Shown here one piece after another: positions 10,532 to 34,964 of a stretch of 34,984 nucleotides of DNA (positions are counted from its first letter, which is position 1; every line of letters starts with the position of its first letter). The notes below the pieces were generated by a model. That model made no database searches. It saw only the letters and a list, made by a program, of their open reading frames with translations, and was not told the DNA's origin. The position numbers were made by a program, and so were the translations under genes. The DNA comes from Patescibacteria group bacterium (GTDB taxonomy: Bacteria > Patescibacteriota > Microgenomatia > Levybacterales > UBA12049): assembly GCA_023473785.1 (NCBI GenBank), contig JAMCYD010000029.1:1-34984 (forward strand). The letters run 5' to 3'.

Positions 10532-11587
10532 TTAGCGCATTGCAGGTAAGTATGTTGTGATTGGGACATTGGTAGTTGTTGTAGAATTTGAGGTTCCTGT
10601 AAAAACAAATATAGGCACAAGGAAACCGGTTGTTCTATCGTCTAAGTAGGCAATGCTTACAGAGTTTATGTTAGTTGACAGTAGGGGTGGGATATTTGCT
10701 CCTTGATTATCTCCATAGCTTACAATTATCCCTTCTCCGTTTTGGATTTTCCGTTCAGCCTCCTCAATGGATAAGAGTAGGCGTTTTTCGAGGCCTTGGT
10801 ATGAAATAAATACATATGAAAATCTCCTTACCATTCCAAGAGTATCCATGATAATACTGGCGCTACTAGAAGTTCCATATTGGTAGAAAAGGGGTACGTT
10901 ATTTAAAACCCTTTTTAGAGTAAGCTCAAAAGATGTTGCCGAAGATGGATCTCTGATTGTCGACGATTGCTCCTCTCCTCTATGATAAAGAATCTTATTT
11001 ATCACTAGGTTTTTTCCCAAATAGCGTTGCTTTTGCAGGAAATCATTAGTAACTTTTTTTATGTCATCATCAGATTTTATGCTTACTATAGAAGCATCTT
11101 CTTTTCCTCGGGCTTGGGCATTTGTGTAAATTAATAATCCTGAGTCAAGATATACTGTCAGAGACTTCATTCTGTCTTCGGAATTCCAAACATAGAGATT
11201 AGGATTAATAGTTTGGGGGGTGATGTTTATAGAGAATGAGTTGGCGATATTCTGAGCTTGTGTTTGGTCAATGCCGGACCCCTCAGTCTTGTATATGGTA
11301 AGGTCTGCGGGGAAAGAAACAGTTGGCAATGAAAAGATAACTGTCCCAAGTTTATTTGTTTGCAGGGACGGAGCCCTTTTTATTACAGGTGTTGGAATTT
11401 TTGATCCGGGAACAAAATTGCTGGGTAGAACTGGTGTTGGGGTAGCAAGTATGCCTTGGTTGTCTCTTTTATTCCTTACAGACATCCCAATTAGGGATGC
11501 TGTAATAACGAAAAGTATAAATATTAAAAACAAACTCGTTTTTTTATGAATGAGAAGAAAGTAAAATATTTTTGTCATGGGCTCCAC
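10532..11587 (-). CDS. N-terminally membrane-anchored extracytoplasmic protein of unknown function; positional candidate for a VirB8/TcpC-like T4SS component
   Basis: 351 aa with a single N-terminal TM (SLFLIFILFVITASLIGM), a Pro-rich spacer and about 280 aa of mixed alpha/beta sequence. Its start overlaps the stop of the upstream hydrolase gene (11575-11587). It is the last gene of the VirB4 operon. No motif was recognised. Confidence 0.4.
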   Translation of the reverse strand: MEPMTKIFYFLLIHKKTSLFLIFILFVITASLIGMSVRNKRDNQGILATPTPVLPSNFVPGSKIPTPVIKRAPSLQTNKLGTVIFSLPTVSFPADLTIYKTEGSGIDQTQAQNIANSFSINITPQTINPNLYVWNSEDRMKSLTVYLDSGLLIYTNAQARGKEDASIVSIKSDDDIKKVTNDFLQKQRYLGKNLVINKILYHRGEEQSSTIRDPSSATSFELTLKRVLNNVPLFYQYGTSSSASIIMDTLGMVRRFSYVFISYQGLEKRLLLSIEEAERKIQNGEGIIVSYGDNQGANIPPLLSTNINSVSIAYLDDRTTGFLVPIFVFTGTSNSTTTTNVPITTYLPAMR

Positions 11588-13395
11588 CCATCCTTAACAT
11601 AGTATCTCACGCTGTACTCTCTGCTGTTTACTATATTCTGGAGCAGGCTCCATAGATAGTCAATATCTTGGGAGTAGTGTCTGATGCACCCACTGCTTCC
11701 GGGTCCTACAACAGGATGAGTCATGTCGGAACTATGAAGACCAAAAGTTCCTGGAATCCACCTGCATTGTAATCCGCCGCATTCTGTGTAGGGAGTAGGT
11801 CCTCCATTGGGATTATCAAAGGGAATGTCAAGGTGCAGGAAATGGGGATCTGATGGGATGGGGGAATCTAAGGCTGCTGCGTTAATTATCCAATATTCTC
11901 GTGCGGGATAAACAAGATTTGACAATGGGGTTGGAGTGCTTCCGGAGGCCCCCGGGTTTACCATAAACGAACGTATAAGCGTACTCGCATCTTTATTTCC
12001 CGGCTGCCCTTTGTAGAGATATTCTTCTTTGCTTTGTCTGTCAAGAACAAGCCAGTATTGATCTTGCGGTGATGCGGGAGGTGACGGAGTTGTTGCGGAA
12101 ACGTAAACACTGTATGGAGAGCAGCGAATGCCTATGTCTGTTGCAGGATCCCAGTCGCAATCCGGCGGCGTTATCGCTTCTGGTATATTGGGAGGAGCAA
12201 GGGGAAGATTTCTGAATTCAAAATGAAGGTGAGGGCCCGTAGAGTGGCCCGTGCTCCCCATGTGTCCAAGGAGAGTTCCTGGTGCTACGATAGAATTATC
12301 AGAAACAACTATATCTGAGAAATGACCATAGATTACTGTAAATTTTCCTGTAGCATCGACAAGGTCTACCTCGTTGCCATACCCTGTATTGCATGCGCCA
12401 GAACAAGGTGTTACTTTCTGTACTTTCCCGTTAATCGTTGAATAAATGGGTGTTCCTGTGGTGTTGGCTATGTCAACAGCCTGATCTTTTCCAGAATTTA
12501 GATCATAAATATTGGTTTTATGATCAGTTCCTCCTTGCGGCCCTTGTGTTAATGTGCCCGATGTTGGCCAGCCAAATGCTGATGCCGATATTGACGTCTG
12601 GCAGTTTTGGTAATCTTGCCAGACCTCCCCGCAATAACTATAGCTGCCATAAGCACAGCTATTGTGATACCTTTCTATAGCAGTGTTAATTTGATCCTGA
12701 GTGGGTTGGGACGTTACCCCGCTATCCTTTAGTTTTTGAGCTGCGATAGAAAGACTTTCCGTAATGCTACATAAATTTCCTCCGGGATGATAAACGTCAA
12801 CTATTTGCATAAGTCCAACCGCGCGTGCATCTCGTGCTCCTCCTGCTAGCTCTGCGCCTGAGCAAGACCCTGAATGTAAGTTTTGTCCTACCCCCTCGCA
12901 AAAAACCGCACCCTCATTGCAAAAGTAGTTAGACGATATGCGAGAATCATTATTGTCAATGCTTGTCACAAAGCCTGCGTTTTCATGCATGGCAACGCTT
13001 GATAGAACCGCAGGGGGAATACTAGCTTTATTGGCAGCATCTGTTATCCAACCTGCCAAAATAGAGCTCTTAATTGGACTCTGTGTGCCTGATCGAGTAA
13101 ACTGACAGGAAGAAACATTTCCATTGCCCGATCCGCCTCCTGGCCCTCCTGGATTTGGTTGCTTGCCAAGCTCCAGTGCTGCGCCGGTGCCTCCTCCCAA
13201 GAGAATTATAAATACGATAATTAGAATAACAGCAATTACTATTGCGGCCGGTATCCATATCTGACTGGTTGATGCGATTTCTGCCGCACCCGTAACAGCT
13301 CGTCCTATTTTAGTCGCTCTCTGAATGTTTTGCGCGGTGTTTATGGCGGAATTTAAATTGTCAACGACCCCTTTTCTTCGTTGTCTTTGGTCCAT
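11575..13395 (-). CDS. membrane-anchored three-domain peptidoglycan enzyme: SLT-like lytic transglycosylase, M23 metallopeptidase and YkuD-like L,D-transpeptidase fold
   Basis: TM at aa 47-66 followed by a Gly-rich linker. SLT-like block: VAMHENAGF...AVGLMQIV (about nt 12661-13083). M23 block: GYGNEVDLV...YGHFSDI...GHMGSTGHSTGPHLHFEF (about nt 12208-12573). C-terminal YkuD-like block: YWLVLDRQSKEEYLYKG...TPTP...FGLHSSDM...GPGSSGCIRHYSQDIDYLW (about nt 11596-12060). Confidence 0.7.
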   Translation of the reverse strand: MDQRQRRKGVVDNLNSAINTAQNIQRATKIGRAVTGAAEIASTSQIWIPAAIVIAVILIIVFIILLGGGTGAALELGKQPNPGGPGGGSGNGNVSSCQFTRSGTQSPIKSSILAGWITDAANKASIPPAVLSSVAMHENAGFVTSIDNNDSRISSNYFCNEGAVFCEGVGQNLHSGSCSGAELAGGARDARAVGLMQIVDVYHPGGNLCSITESLSIAAQKLKDSGVTSQPTQDQINTAIERYHNSCAYGSYSYCGEVWQDYQNCQTSISASAFGWPTSGTLTQGPQGGTDHKTNIYDLNSGKDQAVDIANTTGTPIYSTINGKVQKVTPCSGACNTGYGNEVDLVDATGKFTVIYGHFSDIVVSDNSIVAPGTLLGHMGSTGHSTGPHLHFEFRNLPLAPPNIPEAITPPDCDWDPATDIGIRCSPYSVYVSATTPSPPASPQDQYWLVLDRQSKEEYLYKGQPGNKDASTLIRSFMVNPGASGSTPTPLSNLVYPAREYWIINAAALDSPIPSDPHFLHLDIPFDNPNGGPTPYTECGGLQCRWIPGTFGLHSSDMTHPVVGPGSSGCIRHYSQDIDYLWSLLQNIVNSREYSVRYYVKDGWSP

Positions 13396-13413
13396 AGTTT
13401 AATGATACCAGAA

Positions 13414-15345
13414 TTAGGGTTTATTAAAAACAGAAGAAGCATTCGCTGGCGGAGTGCTTTGAACAGGGGTAGGGGGTAAGGCCTGTTCAGCTTGTGAGGG
13501 TGTGGGTTGTGGGCTAGCCGGCTGGAGTATTGTCGGTTTGGGCGAAGAGGCAAGACTTGCTTCTTCTTTAAGCTTCATAACCTCACGAGGATTTGATGTG
13601 ATTATATTATGCTCAAAGGGAGCAGCAATAACCTTCATAACTACATGACTTTGCCCTGCAAAAAATAATCCCTCTCCAACGGCAGACGACAAAAGTAATT
13701 CTTTTTCCCCCTCGGATAAATAAAATAATTTGGAAACTTGATCAATCTCCGTCGGACTTTGCTTAAGAAGCATTTGAATTGAAGAATTAGATAAGACAGC
13801 TCTTCCGTAGTCAGTAGATAGGAAATCTTGAATATCTTGAGTGGCAGTAGTTAAGGCCAGATAATACTTGCGAGCTCTTTTGGCAATTCCATAGACAAAA
13901 GAAGCAGAGTCTTCGTACTTCATGATGTACCATGCCTCATCTAGGATTAGAAGTCTTTTTTTAAGATTTTTTCTTATTCTCGTCCAGACGAAATCTAGGA
14001 TAATGTGCATAGCAATGGGTCGAAGTTCTTCTTCAAGTGCTTTTATGGAGAAAACAGTAAATGGATTTTTAATATCGAAGTTTGACTGCTGATTAAATAT
14101 TCCACTGAGGCTCCCTTTTATAAATTTTTCAAGACGAAGAGCAAGATTCTTAGAGCTTGGGTCCTCCATCCCCAAAAGGGTCTTATAGAGATCTTCCATA
14201 AGAGGCGGTTGATTTTTCTGGGTTGTTGGATCAACCGTAATGCCTTTTTGTCTATAGACTTCAACCAGCGCTCTGTCAAGCATTGCATCCTCTGAGGAGT
14301 CAAGCTGTCCCAAGGCAATCTTTAAGAGCCCATGTAGAGATAAAATTTTAAGCCCGAGCTCGTTTTCTCCTTCTTCATAAAGTCCCGAAAGATCAAAAGG
14401 GTTTATTTTAATTGGGTCGGATGGGGCAAAAGAAACATACTCTCCTCCAAGAGTATGGGTTAAGGCTTCGTATTCTCCCTCAGGATCAAGAATTATAACC
14501 TCTGTTCCGAACATAAATTGCCTCATTGCCTCAAGTTTTATGAGGTAAGATTTTCCAGATCCTGATTTACCAAATACAACTTCATTTGCATTTTCAAGCG
14601 AATATCTGTCAAAGATGATAAGAGATCCATTTTGTTCATTCGTTCCATACATAATTCCTTTATCTTGTGTGAGCATGGCAGAGGTAAAGGGGAAAGTTGA
14701 CGCAAGAGAGGTAGTATCCATATTTCGTGTTATAAAAAGCCTATCGCTGCCAAGCGGAATAGTTGATTTAAATCCAGCTTCCATCTGGAGCGTTGTAGGC
14801 TTTGCGATAAGAAGAATCGATGAGAGAGTAGAGGTAAGTCTTTTTGCTGCATCTTCAAGATCTTGTATGCTTTCGGAAGAAAGAGTTATATAGAGACTAA
14901 ATTGAAAAAACCTTTCAACTCCCTTTGCAAGTTGTTCCTGCAAGGCAAGTGCGTCTTCAAGCGCTGCCTGTACTTTCGGGTCAATTACCTTTCCTTCCTC
15001 AATTTGAGATGAAATCGTCGCTTCCATCTCTGCAACCTTGCGTCTTAAATCAGACAATACATCATTTGAAGATGTTGGATAGCAAAACATCGATATATTC
15101 ATCGAGTGATCAAAGTCGATAAGAGGAGAAAGCCAGTTGGGAGATACAAATCGCGGATAACCGACCACAAAAAATGTTTTATAATATAAGTCGCCAACCC
15201 GTATGAAATTGAAATCTACTTCTACGGAGGATGGGGCGATGATATCAGTTAAAGATGCTGTCCCTTTCTCAAAGATAGAAAGCCCCGGTAAGTTTTTTTG
15301 CGGGGCAAGGCTTTCTTTTTGTTGTTTTTTTCCAAATAATTTCAT
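13414..15345 (-). CDS. virB4: VirB4/TrbE/PrgJ-family type IV secretion ATPase
   Basis: 643 aa. Motifs: Walker A VFGKSGSGKSY, Walker B RLLILDEAWY, and the downstream ATQDIQDF block. The N-terminal region is typical of VirB4 (IAPSSVEVDFNFIRVGDLYYKTFFVVGYP). The C-terminal tail is Pro/Gln-rich. Confidence 0.85.
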   Translation of the reverse strand: MKLFGKKQQKESLAPQKNLPGLSIFEKGTASLTDIIAPSSVEVDFNFIRVGDLYYKTFFVVGYPRFVSPNWLSPLIDFDHSMNISMFCYPTSSNDVLSDLRRKVAEMEATISSQIEEGKVIDPKVQAALEDALALQEQLAKGVERFFQFSLYITLSSESIQDLEDAAKRLTSTLSSILLIAKPTTLQMEAGFKSTIPLGSDRLFITRNMDTTSLASTFPFTSAMLTQDKGIMYGTNEQNGSLIIFDRYSLENANEVVFGKSGSGKSYLIKLEAMRQFMFGTEVIILDPEGEYEALTHTLGGEYVSFAPSDPIKINPFDLSGLYEEGENELGLKILSLHGLLKIALGQLDSSEDAMLDRALVEVYRQKGITVDPTTQKNQPPLMEDLYKTLLGMEDPSSKNLALRLEKFIKGSLSGIFNQQSNFDIKNPFTVFSIKALEEELRPIAMHIILDFVWTRIRKNLKKRLLILDEAWYIMKYEDSASFVYGIAKRARKYYLALTTATQDIQDFLSTDYGRAVLSNSSIQMLLKQSPTEIDQVSKLFYLSEGEKELLLSSAVGEGLFFAGQSHVVMKVIAAPFEHNIITSNPREVMKLKEEASLASSPKPTILQPASPQPTPSQAEQALPPTPVQSTPPANASSVFNKP

Positions 15346-16010: not shown

Positions 16011-16011
16011 A

Positions 16012-17223: not shown

Positions 17224-17417
17224 AATGCTTCAAATAGTGTATAACGTGAAAAATCCCATTTCAAGATTATCAAAGTAGGTCAAAAATTGAGAAAAATAAG
17301 GCTAGCGTGAAAACTAAGCAAAATCAGTTAAATAAAGTACATATTCAGTAGGATTTCCCATAGCCGCAGCGTCTCTCGTAATAAAAGAAGATGCCAAAAG
17401 TCAAGAAAAAGTAGATC

Positions 17418-17446
17418 TTGCAGTAATTTTTTCTTTTATATATACT
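17418..17446 (+). promoter_or_regulatory. sigma70-like promoter placed for a leaderless transcript
   Basis: TTGCAG (17418-17423), 17-nt spacer, TATACT (17441-17446), then 7 nt to the ATG at 17454. No Shine-Dalgarno sequence is possible. Confidence 0.35.
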
Positions 17447-17453
17447 CTTCTTG

Positions 17454-18080
17454 ATGAGTGAAATAGGTGAAGGTTCTTTACCCATTGCCTCAAGGCCCTC
17501 AAAAGTTTCGACAGCAGAAGCGATCAGAGATAAAGGCATTTTCTCTTGGGAAAGAGTAATGCCAAGACTTAAAGAGGATGTTAAAAAAGGAAAAACTCTT
17601 GTTATCACAAACGGTCATTTCGTTATGCTCCACCCTGGTCATTCATTTGGGTTTGAAGAGGCTAGGAGAGCAGGAGCAAAAAAAGCAGGAAGTGATTCAG
17701 CTGTAGATCTTTTGGTGATTGTAAATAATGACCGGCAGACAAAAGGGAAAGACCCTGTTAAGGGAACTCAAAACGCAAGCGAAAGGGCTTTGGGAGTTCT
17801 TGACAATAGACACACGGATTTTGTAGTGATTTCGATGGGAGAAGGAGACCAAAGCGTTTTGGGTGACATGCTTCTTTTGGAAAGAGAGGGTTTGCTTGGA
17901 GAGAACGTAATCTATGTCAAGGGAGGAGATTATGATAATGGAGAGAACAGACCCTCTGAGGCTGAAATTGTTGAAAAGAATGGCGGACAGTTTGTAATAA
18001 TTGATAGGGTACAAGGATATTCTACGACTAGTACTTTGAACAGGATGGTAGAGGCACTAAGGACAAAAGGAGGGATATGA
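17454..18080 (+). CDS. cytidylyltransferase-fold nucleotidyltransferase, most like HldE domain II / HldC (heptose-1-phosphate adenylyltransferase)
   Basis: Matches to the RfaE domain II pattern: LVITNGHFVMLHPGHSFGFEEAR (HxGH), LLVIVNNDRQTKGK, VIYVKGGDY, and GGQFVIIDRVQGYSTTSTL. The track start is TTG 17451; the ATG is at 17454. Confidence 0.6.
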   Translation: MSEIGEGSLPIASRPSKVSTAEAIRDKGIFSWERVMPRLKEDVKKGKTLVITNGHFVMLHPGHSFGFEEARRAGAKKAGSDSAVDLLVIVNNDRQTKGKDPVKGTQNASERALGVLDNRHTDFVVISMGEGDQSVLGDMLLLEREGLLGENVIYVKGGDYDNGENRPSEAEIVEKNGGQFVIIDRVQGYSTTSTLNRMVEALRTKGGI

Positions 18081-18343
18081 AAATAACAATTTTTACATCG
18101 ACTTTGTGTCCTTTCTCAGATCTTGTAATCAGTGATTTAAGAAAAGTGGGATTGGAGCCTGAGGTTAAAATCGCCGACGTAGACGTTGATGCTACAAAAG
18201 AGATGGCAGAGCTTACTAAAAGAGCTTTCACTCCGGTAACTAAAATAACCAAGGAAGACGGCTCGTTCATCGTAGTTGAGGGATACAACGGCAAGAAAAA
18301 GAAATTAATAGAAGACGCTTTAGGTGTTAAATTAAGCAGCTGA
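18077..18343 (+). CDS. glutaredoxin/NrdH-like small thioredoxin-fold protein (single-Cys CPFS site)
   Basis: 88 aa. MKITIFTSTLCPFSDLV...TPVTKITKEDGSFIVVEGYN fits the glutaredoxin-like beta-alpha-beta layout. There is a 4-nt overlap with the upstream gene. Confidence 0.55.
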   Translation: MKITIFTSTLCPFSDLVISDLRKVGLEPEVKIADVDVDATKEMAELTKRAFTPVTKITKEDGSFIVVEGYNGKKKKLIEDALGVKLSS

Positions 18344-20056
18344 GGTAACTTGCTGTTTTCTTTTAATTTCCAGATCTACTAATCCAGTAAGCAATTTAAT
18401 TAAATTGTCTCTTCTCTGGCAAAGTGTTCTAGCGATATAGCTTTTTATTCCCTCGTTGCGCATATGTTTAAGTGTTGTTTCTGCATCTTGAGTCCACCTT
18501 AGATCTCGAAAGAATCTTGCCGAAAGAACTCCATCCACGATATATCCTTTTTCAATATCACTCTGAGAGGGATCTCTATAAGAAAAGATGGTTTGAGAGA
18601 GTTTATCTTTCGAGGACTGTATTTTTCTTTCAAACCCTTCTAAGATTATTACTTCATCCTCTCTTTGGGGATATCCCGCTTCTTCTACTGCCGATCTGAT
18701 TTCCTGATCCTGAAGTGTTCCTAGTCTTGCAAGACTCTTTTTTAGAAGATCAGGGTCTGCGATTCTAATAAAACCGTTAGGTCCCCCTTCAATCGTTAAA
18801 ACATTTGCATAAGCTTCATTAACAGGGACATCTGCATTTGGATTATCATCAGGAACTGTTCTTAAAAGATCCCACATATTTTCAGGAGTAACTTCTCCAC
18901 TGAAACCTTTTAAACCACCGGTTGCACGCGAGAAAAGGGCTGCCCCGTGATCTATAAATGCTATTTTTCCATCCTTCATCATTACATTGTGAGGTCTACG
19001 ATTATACTGGCTTAGAAGAAGATCAATAATTAAACCTTCTTGAAGGTATTGGTTTATTAGGTACTTTTGACTGAGCTCAAAGGGATTAGCCTCCTCATAG
19101 TATCCTTCAAGAAATCCGACAACTAATACGCTTGAAGTTGTTGTTGTACCTTCTTTAGAAGTTTCCACTATATCTTGAAGATTAATGTCTGGAACTGGTA
19201 GTCCCATCAATTTCATGATTCTATTTTGAACAATTTCAGATTGAAGAGTGTGCTTTGCCTCGGGAGGCGACTTCTTAACTACAAACCTTCTTCCTTCCTC
19301 GTCTTGCCAAATCTCAATCATGTTAGATACTTGTTTTGCTCCTGTCAGCTTTTTAACAAGGAATTTTGTTCCTAAAGGAGTTTCCCATACATCTAACGTC
19401 TCGTCTTGATGATTTTCTTGTCCTACAAGTTTTGCTCCTGAGATATCAATTAAATCTGAAACAACTTGCTCTCTCGATTCCAATACGGCTCGAGATATGG
19501 CCTGTTCCTCAACCCACTTTTGAAGTTTGGGATTTCCAGACAGAACACCCAAGCTTTTAAGTTTCGAGGCAGAGTTTAAAAAATCTTCTAGTTTTTGTTT
19601 CGCCTGGGCAGTATCAAGTGAGGGATTTAGGGTTGTAATTCTTGTCTTTCCATTTTCATCAATTTCTATTTTGTTAAGAGGATTTTGGGGATCAGGTACA
19701 TAGGAAATATCCTCTATGCGAGGATAGTCAAATCGAGGTCTTTTTCCTAAAATGCCTGCTTTTACTCCATGAGCAAGAAGAGAAAATTCGGGAGTAAGAA
19801 GAAGGTCATTCTCGATCCCCAAGCGTCTCAATTCATTTATAGCCGCGACCGCTTTTGATCCGAGATCAGATTTTGCCTTATCGAAGAGATCTTTGGCTTG
19901 AGATTTGTCTTCAGATTTAAGACTTTCTTTTTCAGCCTTTCTTTCAAGGACTTCTTCAAAAGAAGGAAGTTTTCTCTCCCTTCTTAGTCTATTGTGTTTT
20001 ATCTGTTCGGTTGGAGGACTAGAAGAGATAGCTTCCTGTCCGTCTCTGATTTCCAT
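18332..20056 (-). CDS. hypothetical protein with a possible protein-kinase-like core lacking the catalytic Asp
   Basis: 574 aa. Candidate kinase landmarks: GRRFVVKK (beta3 Lys), QSEIVQNRI (alphaC Glu), VVGFLEG (hinge), QYNRRPHNVMM (aligns to HRDLKPEN with Asp replaced by Asn), and AFIDHG (DFG-like). This alignment was done by eye only. Confidence 0.3.
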   Translation of the reverse strand: MEIRDGQEAISSSPPTEQIKHNRLRRERKLPSFEEVLERKAEKESLKSEDKSQAKDLFDKAKSDLGSKAVAAINELRRLGIENDLLLTPEFSLLAHGVKAGILGKRPRFDYPRIEDISYVPDPQNPLNKIEIDENGKTRITTLNPSLDTAQAKQKLEDFLNSASKLKSLGVLSGNPKLQKWVEEQAISRAVLESREQVVSDLIDISGAKLVGQENHQDETLDVWETPLGTKFLVKKLTGAKQVSNMIEIWQDEEGRRFVVKKSPPEAKHTLQSEIVQNRIMKLMGLPVPDINLQDIVETSKEGTTTTSSVLVVGFLEGYYEEANPFELSQKYLINQYLQEGLIIDLLLSQYNRRPHNVMMKDGKIAFIDHGAALFSRATGGLKGFSGEVTPENMWDLLRTVPDDNPNADVPVNEAYANVLTIEGGPNGFIRIADPDLLKKSLARLGTLQDQEIRSAVEEAGYPQREDEVIILEGFERKIQSSKDKLSQTIFSYRDPSQSDIEKGYIVDGVLSARFFRDLRWTQDAETTLKHMRNEGIKSYIARTLCQRRDNLIKLLTGLVDLEIKRKQQVTSAA

Positions 20057-20118
20057 AATTTTTAATCTGCAAACTTCTTTGGAGTTCTTCTTCGCTAACC
20101 TCCTCCTTTGGCCAGGTC

Positions 20119-23100
20119 TTACGGGGAAGAAGCCAAAAGTTCAAAAGCCATTTCGGCTATACGTTCGGGAGCAATTCTATTAATTAATTTTTTACTTTCG
20201 TCTGTTTCCATGACATCTACCGTTGGTAATCTTTCTTCCTCCTCTTGAGTTAGGGTTATTTGTTTTTGCTTGGGACTTGAAGCCCACATGGAAGGAGGGA
20301 AATTTCTTGGCATATAGATGGTTGCAACATTGGGTCCACCTTCAATCGCTACAGCTACATGTGCAAGCCCCGTATCATTTGACAAAACTACGTTTTGGTG
20401 ACTCAAGAGAACAGCAGCTTCAACAAGGGTAGACGATATAATATTTACTCTATCAAGGACTCCAACCCCTCTTAAGGCATTTTCTATCTCCTCTTTTGTG
20501 TAGGAAGGATCTTGAGGACCACCATTATATAAAAGATTAAACTGGTAATTAGGGTCTCTAGTAGCCATTATTTTTATGGTCTCAGCCCAATTTGAGAGGC
20601 TATATCTTTTACCGGGTATTTTGGATTCGATTACAATGCCAATTTGAGGACTTGAGGGATTAATGCTGTATCTGCTCGTAAGAGACCCGTAGATGCTCGT
20701 TTCATTAGGAGGAAGAGCTATTGTGGTTTTTGCATCTTGAGGCATAATCGTTCCTTCAGATAACGAGAAGAGATCCTCGATAAAACGTGCATATTTCGCT
20801 TGGCCATCAGAGTTATTATTATAAAGCTCAATTGCTGGAGAAAATAGGTTTGAGATAAAAGTTATTCTTTTCTTTGTTCCGTCTTCCTGAGAAGTTACTA
20901 CTGGATTCTCAGCTCTATAATGTTCAAAGTCAATGATCAAGGGGTTACGGGCAGAAGATGTTAACGCTTGAGCAGATGCATTTTGAAAACCATAACCCCT
21001 TAAGGCTGGAATTAATTTTATTTTTTCAGTTTCAAAACCTTTAAAGAGTTCTTGATGGTCCTTGTTTATTATTACGTTAATCTTGATATTCCTGCCTTCA
21101 ATAGCTTTTTTAATTGCTTGGAGATAAGCGGTTGCAATTACCGCATCTCCAATTGCTCCTCCAAGGATGACATATATTTCATCGCATCTATCAAGGGCCT
21201 CTCGGATTTCCTTTAACGCTTTTTTTCCCTCTTGCTGATCAGTCAAAATTTCTCCCGAAGAAGAGGTTCTCAAAACATCCCTAATTCTTGATCCCTTTGG
21301 AAATATCCCTTCAGGATAATATGGATAAATTAATTCGGGAGGAATAAGTGCCTCGAGAGGATGTCTTGGGGCAAAGGGGATGGGGATAATAGGTGGTGCT
21401 TCAAATGTTTCATGAAGAGGAGGAATTATATCAATGGCGAAGTGGTGGGTAATCATAGATTCTGAAGGCGGAATTGCGTTAATGATTTCAGATGGGATTG
21501 GTTGAGGAGAGGAAGTTTCCAGAGCAACCGAGGCGAGAGAATGGACAGTAGTTCCGCCGGGGATTGTTCCTTCCTGCAGTACAGAGCCTGATCTAAGAAG
21601 ATTTCCATCTTTTTCCAAAATTGCAGATGCAATTGATCTTACTCCTTGAATCTCCCCGGTTTGAGGATTAAAAAGCTCTTGCGGTAATCGGGCGTTTCCC
21701 AAATTGTCTGCTCCCAGCATAATTTGTCTTCCGTCGTTTAAATCAACTACAAAAACCATGTCGTTATGATGAATAGGACCATTTGCTGTAATCAGCTGAT
21801 CCAGCACTTGATCGTGCATTGGGGCAACTCCGGGGAGATTGGAAGGGATAAGGTCACCCTTTATGTCTCCGCCAAAATTAAGTATTCCCTTTTGATCAGT
21901 TACCCATCTGCCATTTTCATCTAAATACTGACCAATATGAAGAGTGAGCTCGTTATGAGTATGCTCCCCAGTCTGCGCAACAATATCGGGACGAAGAACA
22001 TGAAAATTCCAGGATTTTCGTACCATGTCTGTTTCGATAATGCCTTGTTTTTGAAGCTCTGAAGGAGAGGAAGATAAAAGATGGTCAACTGCAGTAACAC
22101 TACCTGCCTGATGAGCTTCAGTGACATTAAATCCGGCAGCCGCTAAATCACGATGAAGTGCTGCGAAATCAACATTTGGATTACCTATTTGGTCAAAGGT
22201 TAATGTCCCGTCTGGCGACACATGTCCTTCTAGGGTTGCATTGGCTAAAGTATCATGAATTGTTACATGGTTTGTAACTCCATTAACTTCAATGTCCAGT
22301 CCCTTCTGGTGAAAAGATTTGGTAAGCTCATGTTTTGAGATAGTTTCTTGAACACTAGAGAGCATAGATGGTGATCTTGCGGTAGTTTCGTGGATGCTGG
22401 AGGCAAAGCCAGAAGCAGAAAATCCGTTTCTTAGTTGCTCGGCTGCATCACGGCTTAACCCATCTCCGGCAACAATATTATGAAGGACTCCATCGGGTCC
22501 AATACTTCCCGAAGCAATTGCCTGGTGAGTAGCTTCGTCAACAATGGATACGGAGTGATCGGCGGGATTTATTACAGCCTGCATGTGATTGCCAAGCTCA
22601 GCACTTCCTCCATGAGCATAGAGATCTTTAAAGTGATCGATATTTGGTGGTCCTCCCTGTTCATGTTGACCAAAAAGCCCGGTTACTTTATGAATGCCTT
22701 TTTCTATGACAGTTTGCCCCGCAGAAAGTCCTGCTGCTCGCTCGCCCAGCGCAATGCCCTCCTGAACAAGAAATCCAGCTCCAAGACCTACTGTTCCTCC
22801 AAAAACAGCAGCTCCTGCCGCCTGTCGCAATCTATAACGGGCAAAGGCTCTATCCTGCTGCTCTCTGTTTTGGGTAAAACGGCTATTCCACTGTCCTGTA
22901 AATCTTGTTTCAAGTTCTTGGATCTCTTCATTTGACATTCCTGAATTTCTTAATGCTTGAATTGACCTAGCGACTGAATTTATTAGCACTAGACGGCCTT
23001 GTTCTACCTGTTCGCGGGATTGATAAGTAACCAAATCAACTCTCTCTCGGGAGGAAAAATCAAGCCTTGATTGTATTTCTGTAATTCTTCGGGCAACAGC

Positions 23101-24957: not shown

Positions 24958-24962
24958 AATAT

Positions 24963-25382
24963 TTAGTCTTTTGGCGCCACGTCCGGGGCAGCTTTATTCT
25001 CATCAGACGTGCCAGCTGCGTTTGGCGCTGGCGCATTTCTTGCTACGGATACATTACTTAAATATAGGTTTCGAAAATCAGAAAAAGCATTGGCGAAAAC
25101 TTCCTGAGCGTTTGGCATTTTGTCTTTTAAAAACTGTTCTATTTCCGCCTGCGATTTCTTTTCCTCGTTCATTTTGATAAATTCGTCAAGATTTTCAGAT
25201 GGAAGTTTTTCAATAATTGCTGAGGCAATAAAGTTATCCAAGCGTGCAAAGAGTTCTTTTATCATTTCCTCCCTCATTTGATCATCCAGCGTTGTCATGC
25301 CGGCATCTTTAAGAAGACCATCCAGGTAATTCCTTATTTCTTGCGGAATTTCAAGTTTTGGTGCTTGATTTTGCGTGTCCAT
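24963..25382 (-). CDS. small acidic, predicted all-helical protein of unknown function, first gene of the giant-protein operon
   Basis: 139 aa with no TM and an Ala/Pro-rich C-terminal tail. Its stop lies 5 nt before the start of the 1612-aa gene. Confidence 0.4.
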   Translation of the reverse strand: MDTQNQAPKLEIPQEIRNYLDGLLKDAGMTTLDDQMREEMIKELFARLDNFIASAIIEKLPSENLDEFIKMNEEKKSQAEIEQFLKDKMPNAQEVFANAFSDFRNLYLSNVSVARNAPAPNAAGTSDENKAAPDVAPKD

Positions 25383-25388
25383 AAAATT

Positions 25389-25418
25389 AGTATGAACTAG
25401 TTAATTTATATTTGTCAA
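25389..25418 (-). promoter_or_regulatory. sigma70-like promoter placed for a leaderless transcript of the 139-aa/giant-protein operon
   Basis: On the minus strand: TTGACA (25418-25413), 18-nt spacer, CATACT (25394-25389), then 6 nt to the ATG at 25382. Its -35 hexamer overlaps, on the opposite strand, the -35 of the divergent plus-strand promoter. Confidence 0.3.
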
Positions 25419-25440
25419 GCACTACCTCTTCTTATATACT
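25412..25440 (+). promoter_or_regulatory. sigma70-like promoter placed for a leaderless transcript of the HExxH membrane protein gene
   Basis: TTGTCA (25412-25417), 17-nt spacer, TATACT (25435-25440), then 7 nt to the ATG at 25448. Confidence 0.35.
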
Positions 25441-25447
25441 TAAACAA

Positions 25448-26143
25448 ATGGTTTTTCTTTTAATTTTCATTTTTGAACTTACTTTTCTATATTTCCTATC
25501 TAATCTTTTACAAAAATCCTTATCTAGGGCGATCTTTAGTATCGTTAAAAGCGCAACAGCCACCGTTAATGTTCTTTTGATCCTTTTTCTTCCAGGAGTT
25601 ATAATCCATGAGCTTTCTCATTTTCTGGTAGCAAGTCTGCTTTTTGTCAAGACAGGGGAAATTAAATTTTTGCCAGAGATAACAGAAGAGGGAACAAGAC
25701 TTGGAAGTGTCGGAATTGGGAAAACCGATCCAATAAGGCGGGCAATTATTGGTTTTGCCCCGGTTCTTTTGGGGCTGATAGTTCTCCTTGGACTAACCTA
25801 TTATTTAACGCAGGGGAGCGCGTCAATTTCCATCATCAAACTAAGCGGAGTATATGGAATATTTTTTTATCTAATTTTAATTTATCTGTTATTTGCTGTT
25901 GGCAACACCATGTTTTCAAGTAAAAAAGATCTAGAGGGTACGATTGAGCTTTTTATTGTTCTGGGGATAATTTTCTTTGCATCTTATGTGGCGGGAATAA
26001 GAATGCAAGCTACCTGGATACAGACTTTGTTAAGAAACGAGATAATAGATTTTATTAAAAGAGTAGATTTGTTCTTTATTATTCCTATCGGAATCGATAT
26101 TTTTATATATTTATTAGCCGTCGCGTTTATTAAAAGGAGATAA
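25448..26143 (+). CDS. polytopic membrane protein with an intramembrane HExxH motif (putative zinc metalloprotease, M50/DUF3267-like)
   Basis: LPGVIIHELSHFLVA lies at the edge of a TM helix, with at least 5 further TM helices. The track ORF begins at TTG 25412. The ATG at 25448 (MVFLLIFIF...) is preferred because a good promoter occupies 25412-25440. Confidence 0.45.
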   Translation: MVFLLIFIFELTFLYFLSNLLQKSLSRAIFSIVKSATATVNVLLILFLPGVIIHELSHFLVASLLFVKTGEIKFLPEITEEGTRLGSVGIGKTDPIRRAIIGFAPVLLGLIVLLGLTYYLTQGSASISIIKLSGVYGIFFYLILIYLLFAVGNTMFSSKKDLEGTIELFIVLGIIFFASYVAGIRMQATWIQTLLRNEIIDFIKRVDLFFIIPIGIDIFIYLLAVAFIKRR

Positions 26144-26151
26144 GAAGTGAA

Positions 26152-26463
26152 TTATTTACAATTGCCAAAGCCAAATTGCTTGATGCAGGGAACATTGGTG
26201 ATATCACTTATAACGTTGACGATGAAAAATGAAAGCAGAACAATAATCAGGCCAATGATTGCATAAGTTAGGGTATTTCTTGCATCCTCAACTAGTTTTG
26301 GCTGACCTCCCGATCTGATAAATTTCAGTCCTGCGAATATAATAAAAAATACAGCGGCAATCGCTGAAAAAATAAAAATCCATTTGACAACATTCTGAAA
26401 GACTATAGGAATACAGCTAAGCGTTGCTACTCCCTCGGGGCTTAAACAGCTCGTCCAGTCCAT
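26152..26463 (-). CDS. VirB2/TrbC-like T4SS pilin paralogue 1
   Basis: 103 aa with two TM helices around the shared core FAGLKFIRSGGQPKLVEDARNTLTYAIIGLIIV. An N-terminal Cys-x10-Cys loop is present and there is no signal peptide. Confidence 0.6.
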   Translation of the reverse strand: MDWTSCLSPEGVATLSCIPIVFQNVVKWIFIFSAIAAVFFIIFAGLKFIRSGGQPKLVEDARNTLTYAIIGLIIVLLSFFIVNVISDITNVPCIKQFGFGNCK

Positions 26464-26515
26464 ATAATAAGATTAGCAAGGAAAAAATAAAAAGGCAAGA
26501 TTAGAACAGAAGAAC

Positions 26516-26953
26516 TTATGGGCACTTTAATGGATTTCCTGCGAGATCATTGATTGTCAGATTGGTTACCGGATTAGGCTGGCCAAGCAGCTGGAAAATT
26601 AATCCAATGATGAAAAAGGCACCGACAACTATAACAAGACCTACTATTGCGGCAACAATGTGATTTCTTGCCGTTTCAACCGCACTTTTATCTCCGCCTG
26701 ATAATATCCACTTAACGCCACCAAAGATAAGAAATATCACCGCAATAACTATGCCGATTATAAAAACAAGCTGAATTAAGAATTGAGGAACTTTTGTCAG
26801 ACAGATATTACCAATTGATCCTGCCGGAGGAGCAATGGTTACGTTTTGTGCAAAAGCAGAAGCAGCAAGTAATAAATAAGATGAAGCCGTCGCGATAAAT
26901 CCTAATGATTTCCTCATTAATCTTATAATAGGGAGCTTTTTTGGGTTTGTCAA
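26516..26953 (-). CDS. VirB2/TrbC-like T4SS pilin paralogue 2
   Basis: 145 aa with a signal peptide ending AFAQ. Core: FGGVKWILSGGDKSAVETARNHIVAAIVGLVIV. Confidence 0.6.
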   Translation of the reverse strand: MTNPKKLPIIRLMRKSLGFIATASSYLLLAASAFAQNVTIAPPAGSIGNICLTKVPQFLIQLVFIIGIVIAVIFLIFGGVKWILSGGDKSAVETARNHIVAAIVGLVIVVGAFFIIGLIFQLLGQPNPVTNLTINDLAGNPLKCP

Positions 26954-26961
26954 GTCCCGAT

Positions 26962-27294
26962 TTAGCTGGGGCCAAGCGGGAAAAGACTAGGTTTACCGCC
27001 CAGAATTGTTATGATAAGTCTTACTATGGTAAAGGCGGCGGTAATAACTACAAGGCCAATGATTGAGTACGTAAGTCTTGCCCGCGCCTGCTGAATTTGC
27101 TCCTTCTCTCCGCCTGATAATATCCATTGAATGCCAGAGTAGATAACGATAATAACTGCAATTATAATGCCTCCGGCAAAGAGAAAATTAAGCCCCATCT
27201 GAATAATTTTTTGCCCTGTATCCATTCCGCCGGTTGGAACATCCCTAGGCGCTTCTATCGGGGTGCCGCTGATTGATAAAGATAAATACCTCAT
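26962..27294 (-). CDS. VirB2/TrbC-like T4SS pilin paralogue 3
   Basis: 110 aa. Core: YSGIQWILSGGEKEQIQQARARLTYSIIGLVVI. Confidence 0.6.
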   Translation of the reverse strand: MRYLSLSISGTPIEAPRDVPTGGMDTGQKIIQMGLNFLFAGGIIIAVIIVIYSGIQWILSGGEKEQIQQARARLTYSIIGLVVITAAFTIVRLIITILGGKPSLFPLGPS

Positions 27295-27303
27295 AATTAG
27301 TTG

Positions 27304-28476
27304 CTATTTGCCTAGTCCTGGAATTCGGAGTATATCAACGCCGATTATTTGAAGTATGACAAGTGAGAATATTATAAAAAGAAGGCCGATTATTGCAGAT
27401 GTAAGTTGGTCCTTTGCTCCCTCAAGTCTTTCGGGGTTTCCTCGTGATTCCATCAGTTTGTAGCCTGATAATATGATGAGAAGAAGAGCTATTCCGCCTG
27501 AGAAACCAAGAATGAGAGAAAAAATAGATTTTATAAAGCCTGTAGGATCCGTTCCGATCTGGCCTATTGCAGTATTTACACTCTTGCAGCTTCCATTTGG
27601 CCCAAGAGTAGCGCAGGGCGGTGGCGGAGGAGAAAGAGGAGTTTCATCGTTTGCAGCTTGTGTATCGGTAAGAAGCGGATCCTTGATAAGCTCTCCCACG
27701 GATCCGTTGGTTTGATCAACAATAACTTGGGCTTCGTAAAAATCAATATCGTCTACCTTGTCGCATCCCTTAATGCTCAATGTATATGAACCAGCGCTTA
27801 ATTCGTTAGGGTTCTTAGGTACGATTATAGATACTGGGGTATCCGTCTGGGTGATTTTAGTGCAATTGGAATCATAAGATTTATGTTTGCCTTCCGCATT
27901 ATTCTTGAGGGTTAACTTGTAGCTATTTCTATCATCTCCGCCTTGTCTTAATTTCTTCTGAGACATAGATACAGTGATTTGACTGCCGGGAGTCGGATTA
28001 TCAGGGCTTATTGAAATATTCTCATTCTCGAGTTCCGGAAAATAATAATGAACGTAGAATTGGGCAATTGCAGCTTGTTCTTTTGTTTTTGCGTTGAAAA
28101 GAGCGAGTCCATATGTATGTCCGCCATAAAACCAATCTCTGCCTGCTTTACAGTTTTCTTTCACGGTGTATTCTTCGCCTCCACAGATAGTAGTAAAAGA
28201 TAAAGTACCTTCCGAATTAGCATCAATTCTCGCCATTTTCACAAAAGGTGCGTGTACGCCAACAATACATTCATTGATTGTTTGGCGGTTGCACACAAAA
28301 TATGTTGCCCCTGGAATTAGGTTGTCAAACGTGACGGAAACCGTAAGAACAGTCTCATCTATAGAGTCTTTATCTGGGGTAATTGTAACATTGGCAAAAG
28401 CATTATCGGAGCGCAGGAAAAGAAATACTAGAATAAAGAAAAAGAATATTGCAAATTTGGAAAAAATTCTCTTCAC
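27304..28476 (-). CDS. fusion of a ~255-aa secreted Cys-containing beta-rich domain to a C-terminal VirB2/TrbC-like pilin module
   Basis: GTG start and a signal peptide ending AFANV. Aa 28-281 form the extracellular domain (nt 27634-28395). The linker is SPPPPPCATLGPNGSC. Aa 288-390 form the pilin core LSGYKLMESRGNPERLEGAKDQLTSAIIGLLFI, colinear with the three short paralogues. Confidence 0.55.
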   Translation of the reverse strand: MKRIFSKFAIFFFFILVFLFLRSDNAFANVTITPDKDSIDETVLTVSVTFDNLIPGATYFVCNRQTINECIVGVHAPFVKMARIDANSEGTLSFTTICGGEEYTVKENCKAGRDWFYGGHTYGLALFNAKTKEQAAIAQFYVHYYFPELENENISISPDNPTPGSQITVSMSQKKLRQGGDDRNSYKLTLKNNAEGKHKSYDSNCTKITQTDTPVSIIVPKNPNELSAGSYTLSIKGCDKVDDIDFYEAQVIVDQTNGSVGELIKDPLLTDTQAANDETPLSPPPPPCATLGPNGSCKSVNTAIGQIGTDPTGFIKSIFSLILGFSGGIALLLIILSGYKLMESRGNPERLEGAKDQLTSAIIGLLFIIFSLVILQIIGVDILRIPGLGK

Positions 28477-28547: not shown

Positions 28548-28559
28548 ATAGTTCTGCGG

Positions 28560-28982: not shown

Positions 28983-28990
28983 ACTTCGAA

Positions 28991-30348: not shown

Positions 30349-30394
30349 AATAGTTCAAAGATCAAATATTAAATATCAAAGACTATCTCATAAC

Positions 30395-30799
30395 TTAAAG
30401 ATTTTTCTTGCCTTTCATTGTCAATACGCTTGAGCCAATAATTTTACTAATTTCCTCAATTTCTTTGGTAAATTTTAAGATTTTCTCTGTCTCTTCTGGT
30501 AATAATTCTTTTAACATAGCCAGCCAGTATTTTGCTTCATTGGCAGACTTTAAAGATATTTGAAAGTAGTTTAAAAATTCTTTTTTAGAGGAGGATGCTT
30601 TTGCCTCTACGATATTTGCTCCGACTGAAGTAATAGATCTGATTAGCTGATCGGAAATTATTTTAGTGGACTGCTTATAGCTTAGGCTTTCAAGAAATCT
30701 AATGATATTTATGGATAAATAAAAAGCTCTATATTTTAATTCTGTCTTTGAATTTTTAACTTGGTTTTGATTTTTGATTTTTGGGATTTGATCTAACAT
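30395..30799 (-). CDS. four-helix-bundle protein (TIGR02436 / 23S rRNA intervening-sequence protein / Avd-like family), second copy
   Basis: YRAFYLSINIIRFLESL...SDQLIRSITSVGANIVEAKASSSKKEFLNYFQISLKSANEAKYWLAML matches the family consensus. The N-terminus is low-complexity K/N/Q-rich. Confidence 0.85.
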   Translation of the reverse strand: MLDQIPKIKNQNQVKNSKTELKYRAFYLSINIIRFLESLSYKQSTKIISDQLIRSITSVGANIVEAKASSSKKEFLNYFQISLKSANEAKYWLAMLKELLPEETEKILKFTKEIEEISKIIGSSVLTMKGKKNL

Positions 30800-33926: not shown

Positions 33927-33935
33927 CCTATATTA

Positions 33936-34964
33936 TTAAAATCTAAAAGTGTTCCTGAGAAGCCCTGTCCATCCTCCTCTTTGTCCGGGAGTTTGTATCT
34001 TAGTAAAGTAGGCAGCTGTACTTCTTCCAGCACCCATTGGCACACTAGCTCCTACTCCAATTGCGGCACCGACTGTAGATAGATCAATCTTAGGAGCCTT
34101 AAGAGCTGCTTTCATCATGTTGACAATATTGGGAGTAGCGAGGATTATTCCAAGTCCAATAAGCGCGCCGATTGCCTTTGTGTCTGATGGGTTAGCAATA
34201 AGAGGAGGGACAAACTGTCCGGTTGTCTGCGTCGATCCAAAAGCATCAATAAAAACTCTTGCTATGAGAAACATTACAATTGTTGCAGGAAAAGCTGCGA
34301 GATTGGCTACGATATCCCTGATCCAGGTATTAAAGCTTAATTGGCTTCCCGGAAAAAGGCCTGCTACGACCCAAAAGGGCGCAAAAACCACATCTAAAAG
34401 AATCATAACGTATGCTGATATAAGTGCGAACCAGAGCCGAATCAGCGCCCAAAGAATAGCAATCGAGATAATCAGAAAAGCAATAGTTGAAGCAACAAAC
34501 CCTACAATTGTCTTTGCGAAAAGAAAGCCTGCAGCTCCTCCTACGAGACCGCCTACAACAGCACCTACAGTATTGCCAATAGTCCATCCCGCAGCAGTAC
34601 CTGTGCCTGGCGCTCCAAATATTGTTCCTAGGGCAGCCCCTCCGATCCCAAATACCGTCTTGAAGACGCCACCGGCTTTTTTCCCGATAGCTTGCCCGAC
34701 AAATCCACCGATTAATCCAACTATGACTTTCCCCGGCGGATTATCGGCAAGGGGAGCAATAAAATTTCCAACTGATTTTGCAGGTTTCCACGCAATATCA
34801 GCAAGTCCGAGCTGTAGTCCGAGCTTTTCTCCTCCCCCGCCCATATTGTTTGCAGCCTCAATAGGATTAGAGGATTGAGCTATCTTCATCACTGTATCTT
34901 CTTTCTGTAAATTTGGATCAGCAGACGTAATTACATTTCCTGTTAAGTAAATAGATGTATACAT
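33936..34964 (-). CDS. glycine-rich polytopic membrane protein, candidate VirB6/TrbL-like channel component
   Basis: 342 aa. Gly-zipper segments (GLIGGFVGQAIG, GIGGAALGTIFGAPGTGTAAG, GAVVGGLVGGAAG) are followed by TM helices. The pattern LISAYVMILLDVVFAPFWVVAGLFPGSQLSFNTWIRDIVANL resembles the TrbL/VirB6 core. An alternative start exists at Met26. Confidence 0.4.
   Translation of the reverse strand: MYTSIYLTGNVITSADPNLQKEDTVMKIAQSSNPIEAANNMGGGGEKLGLQLGLADIAWKPAKSVGNFIAPLADNPPGKVIVGLIGGFVGQAIGKKAGGVFKTVFGIGGAALGTIFGAPGTGTAAGWTIGNTVGAVVGGLVGGAAGFLFAKTIVGFVASTIAFLIISIAILWALIRLWFALISAYVMILLDVVFAPFWVVAGLFPGSQLSFNTWIRDIVANLAAFPATIVMFLIARVFIDAFGSTQTTGQFVPPLIANPSDTKAIGALIGLGIILATPNIVNMMKAALKAPKIDLSTVGAAIGVGASVPMGAGRSTAAYFTKIQTPGQRGGWTGLLRNTFRF

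Follow-up and report, generated by a model that had tools for sequence, protein, structure and literature searches.

A Patescibacteria-type type IV secretion locus beside the replication origin of a Levybacterales bacterium: composition, conservation and probable role in host contact

What does a type IV secretion system (T4SS) do for a cell when its genes abut the replication origin and no relaxase accompanies them? This question is raised by contig JAMCYD010000029.1 (assembly GCA_023473785.1) of a Patescibacteria group bacterium (Microgenomatia, Levybacterales), on which a T4SS/pilus locus begins 1 nt past the dnaN stop and extends to the contig end (10532-34984). The window analyzed here is the complete 34,984-bp contig, and our statements on absence thereby cover one 35-kb contig and not the whole genome. 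A preliminary description, made from the letters alone, had listed several VirB-like parts and favored a surface-filament, contact or effector machine over a conjugation system. We searched the window proteins, 29 main open reading frames (ORFs), with Pfam and NCBIfam profiles and compared the locus with those of related species. By sequence and by analogy, the best overall explanation is an origin-adjacent Patescibacteria T4SS/pilus machine that is non-conjugative and probably serves as a host-contact pilus or conduit, to which we give a probability of about 0.8. That the locus belongs to the Patescibacteria-type chromosomal T4SSs appears from its sequence to be well supported, and we hold this part with still greater confidence.

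The VirB4 core, the pilins and the wall enzyme

The VirB4 protein matched Pfam P-loop_TraG (4.9e-31) and passed the curated cut-off of the NCBIfam CD1110-family model (8.9e-115; 384.6 bits against 325), which bears out the initial VirB4 call. Its closest PDB sequence was 4AG5, the VirB4 of the Firmicute Thermoanaerobacter (3.9e-47), and TrwK of R388 followed at 1.6e-7. Relatives with E<=1e-10 numbered 7983 among the scored candidates; 120 relatives among the matches listed were 72-85% identical, and the named ones came from the candidate phyla radiation (CPR), Patescibacteria or Levybacteria, while the nearest plasmid-borne VirB4s, from monoderm hosts, were only 28-36% identical. These comparisons point to a VirB4 related to the mating-pair formation class MPF_FATA and belonging to a CPR-wide conserved group.

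Overlapping virB4 by 4 nt, consistent with translational coupling, is the gene for a 222-aa protein, which the preliminary description had left without an identity and named merely as a target for complex prediction. This protein matched positions 98-253 of the NCBIfam model VirB4_plasma (3.9e-11) and, across its full length, TrsD (8.9e-4), and it carries a precomputed PF26593 (TraC-like) assignment. Pairwise BLASTP against the window's own VirB4 gave zero similarity; the TrsD-like protein appears to be a remote relative of the VirB4 N-terminal domain that is visible by profiles only. The neighboring PrgI-type VirB3 (PF12666, 35.1 bits against a gathering score of 27; 1.9e-8) consists of two N-terminal transmembrane (TM) helices, a long linker and a C-terminal CarboxypepD_reg-like beta-sandwich (2.5e-7). 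From prgI through trsD, virB4 and the hydrolase gene to the gene for a 351-aa protein the gaps are 1, -4, 18 and -13 nt, i.e. the genes are tightly coupled.

All four pilins exceeded the gathering score of the T4SS_pilin family (32.9-38.4 bits against 26.6), as had been anticipated when they were described as VirB2/TrbC-like. The early reading had been staked on the pilin and PrgI calls, and both pass their Pfam cut-offs. The pilins are mutually 33-38% identical and have the common VirB2 hairpin, with two hydrophobic helices around a short SGG-x-P/K...AR loop. The 390-aa pilin has a signal peptide and a variable ectodomain of ~300 aa ahead of the pilin domain, and every array, in the window and in three relatives (L002, L004 and L006), starts with such a long pilin of 385-423 aa. 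Across species the N-terminal ectodomain is hypervariable and the C-terminal pilin domain conserved, and from this pattern the long pilin is a candidate tip or adhesin subunit. In the 103-aa pilin (within 26152-26953, minus strand) the pilin domain has two Cys residues close to either end (C6, C17; C93, C102), and in the 145-aa pilin a single one is found close to either end. By analogy, these residues might join the termini through disulfides, recalling the head-to-tail cyclisation of RP4 TrbC and Ti VirB2. Upstream of the pilins lies a P-loop/winged-helix protein that is likely the regulator of the pilin operon.

Directly following virB4 is the gene for a 606-aa protein that begins with a basic segment and has a single strong TM helix, followed by an SLT-like (soluble lytic transglycosylase) E...GLMQ motif, an M23 domain (Pfam 2.4e-20, with M23 matches also in the PDB) and a YkuD-like part (Pfam 0.012) with SxGCIR at its end, and with these parts the original call of a VirB1/PrgK-like multi-hydrolase stands. 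The conserved anchor of residues 1-85, comprising the basic segment and the TM helix, recurs in 23 loci, each time in the gene that comes next after virB4. In contrast to this constant anchor, the extracellular domains are shuffled in relatives (SLT in 4 of 9, M23 in 2, YkuD in 2, CHAP in 1 and NlpC/P60 in 1 by Pfam), and SLT, YkuD and CHAP were each detected by Pfam in genes at the orthologous position. SLT together with CHAP is the arrangement of PrgK (pCF10) and TraG (pIP501). The distance between virB4 and dnaN varies from 27 bp to 5.9 kb across relatives, and the position directly after virB4 serves the Levybacteria system as its VirB1-equivalent slot.

The 351-aa protein that follows had been proposed as VirB8-like from its position, and this call is not supported. 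It had two homologues among 5.8 billion proteins and was present in 2 of 80 related loci, both times beside the same M23+YkuD hydrolase variant. An AlphaFold2 (AF2) model from a 3-sequence alignment showed one TM helix followed by alpha+beta modules, at a mean confidence (pLDDT) of 41.5, which is unusable. Pfam and NCBIfam gave no family match. A role as VirB8 is unsupported; judged by its sequence distribution, this lineage-specific orphan behaves like an accessory of one hydrolase variant and not like a core T4SS subunit.

At the other end of the locus, the VirB6-like frame stays open to the last base of the contig. The 342-aa ORF of the earlier VirB6-like call is only the 3' part of a gene, as the window holds the C-terminal ~60% of a ~590-aa protein; an exact-protein look-up of the 342-aa ORF gave no match, the gene being truncated by the contig end. 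In full-length relatives, of 550-595 aa (P0122, 592 aa, is 89% identical), a signal peptide is accompanied by a conserved ectodomain with two Cys residues and by five or more TM helices. The link to VirB6 itself is weak. The TrbL match of the fragment is sub-threshold (4e-4; 20.7 bits against a gathering score of 25.9), TrbL was matched by 5 of 56 family members (best 1.3e-7), and the family profile gave zero matches to PDB sequences. With the AF2 model of a full-length relative (pLDDT 74.9), Foldseek returned TrwI/VirB6 of R388 as the top match and as four of the six best, but at E values of 0.2-0.7 and low TM-scores. From sequence and model, a VirB6-like identity is plausible, not established.

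Divergently oriented between the regulator and the VirB6-like gene is a ~1000-aa orphan for which we found no credible Pfam, NCBIfam or PDB match with the single sequence or a profile, including member-wise Pfam searches. It has 177 representative relatives in 1.84 billion proteins and evolves fast (median identity 26%), and it occupies the same position and strand in L002, L004/L007, L006 and 21 surveyed loci.

Conservation of the locus and the search for mobility genes

The earlier statement that the locus abuts the origin agrees with our mapping. DnaA boxes are found at 7824, 7852, 9262, 9296 and 9320; perfect matches occur just twice in the window, at 7852, upstream of dnaA, and at 9262, between dnaA and dnaN, with near-perfect copies alongside, and the cumulative GC-skew minimum of the window lies at 8-9 kb. 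The cluster is mostly on the minus strand just right of oriC (~7.6-9.4 kb), so that transcription runs head-on to replication; the plus-strand exceptions are four genes, the ~1000-aa orphan and three insertion genes. Relatives keep this arrangement (virB4 is convergent with dnaN), which is odd for a strongly conserved and supposedly highly expressed cluster.

The identical VirB4 occurred elsewhere only on a 3.4-kb Logan contig, and flanks of the locus were therefore taken from relatives. Each window protein was compared with the virB4 neighborhoods (±10 kb) of 80 GTDB species representatives (L008-L087), in which most taxon-named records are Levybacteria or Patescibacteria. The TrsD-like gene lies directly upstream of virB4 in 76 of the 80 loci and PrgI is present in 72. 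Where the upstream flank is full (44 loci), TrsD and PrgI are found in all 44, the pilins in 38-41, directly upstream of prgI and in the same order, and the regulator in 31 (median identity 54%). Whenever the 10-kb flank is long enough, it also contains the orphan (in 21 loci) and the VirB6-like gene (in 18), in constant order and orientation. On the other side, dnaN and dnaA lie downstream in 52 of 53 loci with at least 6 kb of downstream flank. Long contigs of relatives thus read VirB6-like gene, orphan (opposite strand), four-helix-bundle gene, regulator, four pilins, PrgI, TrsD, VirB4, variable gene(s), dnaN and dnaA. The median identity across the 80 species is 74% for VirB4, the highest of the region, 66% for DnaA, 60% for YidC and 56% for DnaN. 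The pilins, the ~1000-aa orphan and the wall enzyme evolve fast. Such a comparison of neighborhoods had been suggested in the preliminary description, and it showed that the core of TrsD, PrgI and pilins co-occurs with virB4 and that the interleaved GT9 and kinase-like genes seldom do.

Many contigs of related metagenome-assembled genomes are deposited as 'uncultured Gammaproteobacteria bacterium' (third-party annotation assemblies), yet carry the Levybacteria-type locus with a VirB4 that is 70-85% identical. These labels are evidently placeholders or errors.

Mobility genes were looked for in the window and beyond it. No relaxase, coupling protein (T4CP), integrase or VirB7, VirB9 or VirB10 family was found in any of the 29 main ORFs, VirB5 and VirB11 had no Pfam or NCBIfam match in the window, and the only trace of a coupling ATPase (VirD4/TcpA) there was VirB4's own P-loop match to the CD1115 model (0.011). 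The window has no tRNA and no att-like long repeat, as the repeat search returned only a repeat between pilin paralogues. Past the VirB6-like gene, 10 kb of flank in two relatives hold housekeeping-type genes (NUDIX, methyltransferase, P-type ATPase, phosphoribosyltransferase (PRTase) and SmpB) and no relaxase, VirD4 or integrase. Since neither a relaxase nor a coupling ATPase lies in or next to the locus, it is probably not a device for self-transfer by conjugation. The early list of unrecognized parts (relaxase, VirD4, VirB7/9/10, integrase) is correct for the window, but does not support a genome-wide lack of VirD4.

A decayed or domesticated integrative conjugative element (ICE), with its relaxase, T4CP and integrase outside the contig, would account for a VirB4 family that is otherwise found on monoderm conjugative elements, and for a contig that ends inside the locus; moreover, 109 relaxases are known across Patescibacteria genomes (PMC12102498). 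This is difficult to reconcile with a dnaN-adjacent position fixed in 52/53 species, a VirB4 more conserved than DnaA, and flanks in two relatives that hold ordinary genes in place of mobility genes. The preliminary description had singled out a relaxase with VirD4 and an integrase or att sites next door as the mark of an ordinary ICE; neither the window nor the relatives' flanks contain these genes, and the window has no att-like repeat. With no mobility genes, tRNA or att repeats the ICE alternative is unsupported; we regard it as already largely refuted and as very improbable.

Table 1. Features of the window with coordinates, strand and the basis of each assignment.
Feature	Position	Strand	Basis
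valS-like fragment, DUF4012, RNase H, Wzy-like ligase, jag/khpB, yidC, yidD, rnpA	left third	-	
Origin region: dnaA, dnaN and DnaA-box clusters in two flanking intergenic spaces	7605..10530	+	Pfam, box scan, GC skew
dnaA	7919-9259	+	Pfam Bac_DnaA 2.3e-64
dnaN	9412-10530	+	Pfam DNA_pol3_beta
351-aa bitopic protein, one N-terminal TM	10532..11587	-	no Pfam/NCBIfam match
VirB1/PrgK-like membrane-anchored peptidoglycan remodelling enzyme, 606 aa	11575..13395	-	Pfam, motifs, PDB
VirB4 ATPase, monoderm (MPF_FATA-related, CD1110 family)	13414..15345	-	Pfam, NCBIfam, PDB
TrsD-like protein, 222 aa	15342..16010	-	NCBIfam, PF26593
Extended PrgI-type VirB3, 403 aa	16012..17223	-	Pfam, TM scan
Lineage-specific insertion, 8.9 kb	17224..26151	mixed	
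RfaE-domain-II-like heptose-1-phosphate adenylyltransferase	17451-18080	+	TIGR02199 rfaE_dom_II 2.2e-15
Glutaredoxin-like protein	18077-18343	+	
Kinase-like protein, 574 aa	18332-20056	-	sub-threshold HipA_2 and PI3_PI4 only
1612-aa protein with C-terminal GT9 domain	20119-24957	-	GT9 3.8e-9
DUF5663 protein	24963-25382	-	
S2P-like polytopic membrane metalloprotease, 243 aa	25412-26143	+	motifs
Four VirB2-like pilins (103, 145, 110, 390 aa)	26152..28476	-	PF18895
390-aa pilin	27304-28476	-	
Two four-helix-bundle (23S_rRNA_IVP) genes	28560-28982, 30395-30799	-	1e-20 and 1e-18
P-loop NTPase-like protein with C-terminal OmpR/PhoB-type winged helix	29017-30348	-	Trans_reg_C 2.2e-18
~1000-aa orphan with C-terminal hydrophobic helix	30915..33926	+	divergent, between regulator and VirB6-like gene
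3' fragment (348 codons to contig end) of ~590-aa polytopic VirB6-like membrane protein	33936..34984	-	

Known relatives and probable function

Loci of this kind have been described before. In Candidatus Southlakia epibionticum (strain ML1), Wang et al. 2023 found the cluster SEML1_0006-0019 to be closest to Gram-positive conjugative T4SSs, noted that its pilin genes are essential and that neither a coupling protein nor a relaxase could be recognised, and suggested protein export or another role (PMC10633639). Epibiotic growth of this organism, the only one in which such a requirement has been shown, requires both the T4SS genes and the pilin array (PMC10633639; PMC12857230). The survey of Quiñonero-Coronel 2025 (PMC12102498) defined an MPF_FATA-related clade of Patescibacteria VirB4, with TrsD as its commonest partner and proximity to dnaA, dnaN and rnpA in Paceibacteria and Microgenomatia; in it, relaxases were limited to 103 genomes and most T4CP homologues lay at a distance from virB4, VirB6 was 'scarce' among Microgenomatia, and VirB8 was almost missing. 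The same composition, relaxase absence, pilin arrays and dnaA proximity are reported for Patescibacteria including Microgenomatia (PMC12102498), and a 2025 nomenclature review calls Patescibacteria T4SSs unique among monoderms for their essentiality and conjugative-pilus potential (FEMS; PMC12857230). Both the composition and the non-conjugative reading are therefore already published (Wang 2023; Quiñonero-Coronel 2025; the 2025 FEMS review).

The preliminary description had itself cautioned that T4SS-like loci have been noted in CPR genomes and that this composition might already be described; this was right, and the novelty it nevertheless implied falls away. Its preference for a surface-filament, contact or effector machine over conjugation is upheld as a non-conjugative reading by the fixed dnaN position (52/53), the conservation of VirB4 and the lack of nearby mobility genes, though not as something new. 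The coexistence of PrgI- and PrgK-type parts with pilins, which it called an unusual mix, is real and no longer a surprise after these publications, and its premise that monoderm systems lack VirB2 is softened by the Mycoplasma-ICE match discussed below.

The likeness to the Southlakia and other Patescibacteria clusters covers a monoderm-type VirB4, TrsD, PrgI/VirB3, a divergent pilin array, wall enzymes of peptidase or lysozyme type after virB4, a chromosomal position near dnaA, and a cluster without relaxase or T4CP. They differ in that the window has four pilins, one of them the 390-aa fusion, against six in Southlakia; an extended VirB6-like protein of ~590 aa, ~19 kb from virB4 (~10 kb in relatives that lack the insertion); and a syntenic ~1000-aa orphan, a P-loop/winged helix-turn-helix regulator and an 8.9-kb glycosylation-type insertion. 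With the MPF_FATA systems of Gram-positive bacteria (pCF10 Prg/Pcf, pIP501 Tra, Clostridioides CTn CD1110) the locus shares the VirB4 family, PrgI, TrsD (pGO1 subclass) and an anchored multi-domain hydrolase of the PrgK/TraG type, whereas it has VirB2-like pilins, no relaxase, T4CP, PrgB-type adhesin or recognisable VirB8-like protein, and a fixed chromosomal place in contrast to a mobile element, with its VirB4 28-36% identical to plasmid copies.

Mycoplasma ICEs offer a further parallel. The pilins match the Mycoplasma-ICE pilin-like model NF045849 (Mbov_0395; 6.3e-8 and 9.3e-6) and the TrsD-like protein the N-terminal part of the Mbov_0397 VirB4 (3.9e-11), all below the curated cut-offs, and the pilin match indicates that wall-less monoderm elements too carry VirB2-like proteins; those elements are, however, mobile and have DNA-processing functions. 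The diderm VirB/Trw systems (MPF_T, R388), the source of the pilus-assembly model, share the VirB2 pilin hairpin, VirB3-VirB4 docking and a VirB6-like polytopic protein, but VirB5, VirB7, VirB9, VirB10, VirB11 and an outer membrane are lacking here and the TrwK match is only 1.6e-7.

By homology, and by analogy with solved diderm and studied Gram-positive T4SSs, the apparatus may work as follows. The hexameric VirB4 ATPase would be docked at the membrane by the PrgI-type VirB3, accompanied by the TrsD-like protein, and would pull VirB2-like pilins out of the membrane and polymerise them on the VirB6-like platform. The anchored SLT-M23-YkuD enzyme, encoded just after virB4, would locally open the peptidoglycan. 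Less firmly, the P-loop/winged-helix protein upstream of the pilins could control pilin expression, and the long pilin with its hypervariable ectodomain could give target specificity. Most likely, judging by analogy, the machine builds a pilus or conduit that is used in host-cell contact. A 2026 preprint describes tubular structures where a parasite meets its host, and these may be T4SS pili (bioRxiv 10.64898/2026.06.21.733656).

Possibly, such a conduit takes up host DNA, RNA, nucleotides or other macromolecules and thereby offsets missing biosynthesis. This hypothesis has been stated for Patescibacteria (PMC12102498; PMC11665869), with Helicobacter pylori ComB and archaeal Ced as precedents. 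Relaxase and T4CP are absent nearby, the strong conservation is typical of a core physiological function, and the Patescibacterium of the preprint is reported to feed on RNA and to have possible T4SS pili at the host interface. Both precedents are T4SS-derived and without relaxase, but beyond the VirB4/HerA-type ATPase we found no specific sequence relationship, and ComEC or Ced partners are absent from the locus. VirB4 does match CedB weakly (1.1e-15), far below the conjugative VirB4 families (8.9e-115), which reflects the common ATPase fold. Moreover, the locus is without a nuclease, DNA-binding or ComEC-like gene, and we know of no Patescibacteria T4SS for which uptake has been shown. We therefore rate an import function as possible and tentative.

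Export of proteins into the host bacterium, as an effector injector or contact weapon, seems to us slightly less probable again, and doubtful as it stands. The cargo could be the ~1000-aa orphan or the variable proteins by virB4. Wherever the flank reaches, the orphan is syntenic, yet it evolves as fast as host-interaction proteins often do; effector T4SSs without a T4CP are known (Ptl, Brucella VirB; PMC12857230), and protein export was among the suggestions of Wang et al. (PMC10633639). On the other hand, recognisable toxin, immunity or secretion-signal features are absent, the orphan has a C-terminal hydrophobic helix and homology to nothing, and the T4CP-independent route normally runs by Sec and the periplasm, which monoderms do not have. 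Import and export are both live, and neither excludes an adhesive role of the pilus.

Several points weigh against a host-contact pilus or conduit. We know of no monoderm T4SS for which pilus formation has been demonstrated biochemically. A VirB8-like component (bitopic, NTF2-fold) was identified nowhere in the locus by Pfam, NCBIfam or the AF2 model of the 351-aa candidate, and the VirB6 assignment is weak, with TrbL below the Pfam gathering score and Foldseek E values above 0.2. A place near the origin has been proposed in print to favor high expression, and head-on encoding is hard to square with this. Finally, the absences cover the 35-kb contig only, and the 2025 survey has T4CP homologues far from virB4 in many Patescibacteria genomes (PMC12102498).

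The Patescibacteria T4SS is the first reported to be essential for growth of its bearer, and it joins a monoderm core with VirB2-like pilins; this significance has been set out (2023 Cell, 2025 Microbial Genomics, 2025 FEMS Microbiology Reviews). What the window adds is modest: a Levybacteria example that sorts the core (TrsD, PrgI, four ordered pilins, regulator, orphan, VirB6-like protein, modular hydrolase) from the accessory (GT9/kinase insertion, 351-aa orphan), and a candidate VirB6 for Microgenomatia, where the 2025 survey found VirB6 'scarce'. Also specific to Levybacteria are the hydrolase slot with its shuffled domains, the S2P-like protease that some species have next to their pilins, and the heptose-type glycosylation insertion of one lineage.

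The insertion and the neighboring genes

The last pilin is ~180 bp from prgI in L002 and L004, and 8.9 kb from it in the window. The whole intervening block is common to the window and the close relative GCA_023379505.1 (L006). Among the 80 species the kinase-like protein, the adenylyltransferase and the glutaredoxin have no match, the GT9 protein has 3 and the metalloprotease 13; the 574-aa kinase-like protein also had zero matches to PDB sequences. By its distribution, the GT9/adenylyltransferase/kinase block appears to be a later, lineage-specific insertion at a permissive site and not part of the core apparatus. The non-canonical genes that were described as interleaved with the T4SS are thus real ORFs, and the orphan among them is syntenic, but GT9 and kinase as parts of the apparatus are not supported, the insertion being absent from 77-80 of the 80 relatives.

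The 243-aa metalloprotease had zero Pfam or NCBIfam matches. Two motifs are invariant in its family, HExxH within a TM helix and N..DxEG as part of NTMFSSxxDxEG, and a copy lies between the pilins and prgI in 14 relatives, namely L006 and 13 species of the 80 surveyed. By these motifs the protein resembles intramembrane metalloproteases of the site-2-protease (S2P) type and may process pilins.

The RfaE-II-like enzyme, the GT9 protein and the kinase-like protein (17451-24957) look together like an ADP-heptose-type glycosylation module, in a monoderm without lipopolysaccharide. It is an unlikely but conceivable extension that the Levybacteria version holds T4SS parts yet unrecognised, namely the VirB6-like protein of ~590 aa with its Cys ectodomain, the ~1000-aa orphan, the regulator and, in some species, the S2P-like protease, and that the inserted module could glycosylate the pilus or another surface structure in this organism.

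An Rfam scan of the window at the gathering threshold returned zero RNA families. Promoter and terminator scans of 15-35 kb gave counts not above those of shuffled sequence and therefore yield no operon map.

The IVP proteins flanking the regulator (TIGR02436, with weak Avd/bAvd similarity) differ in position between species, as if mobile; the L004 copy lies at 8909-9286. No reverse transcriptase and no template/variable repeat pair, as in diversity-generating retroelements, was found in the window. At the far left, the contig end truncates a class I aminoacyl-tRNA synthetase gene, of which 2-1264 (minus strand) is the 5' part, and a HIGH-type motif, read by eye, makes its product a candidate valyl-tRNA synthetase.

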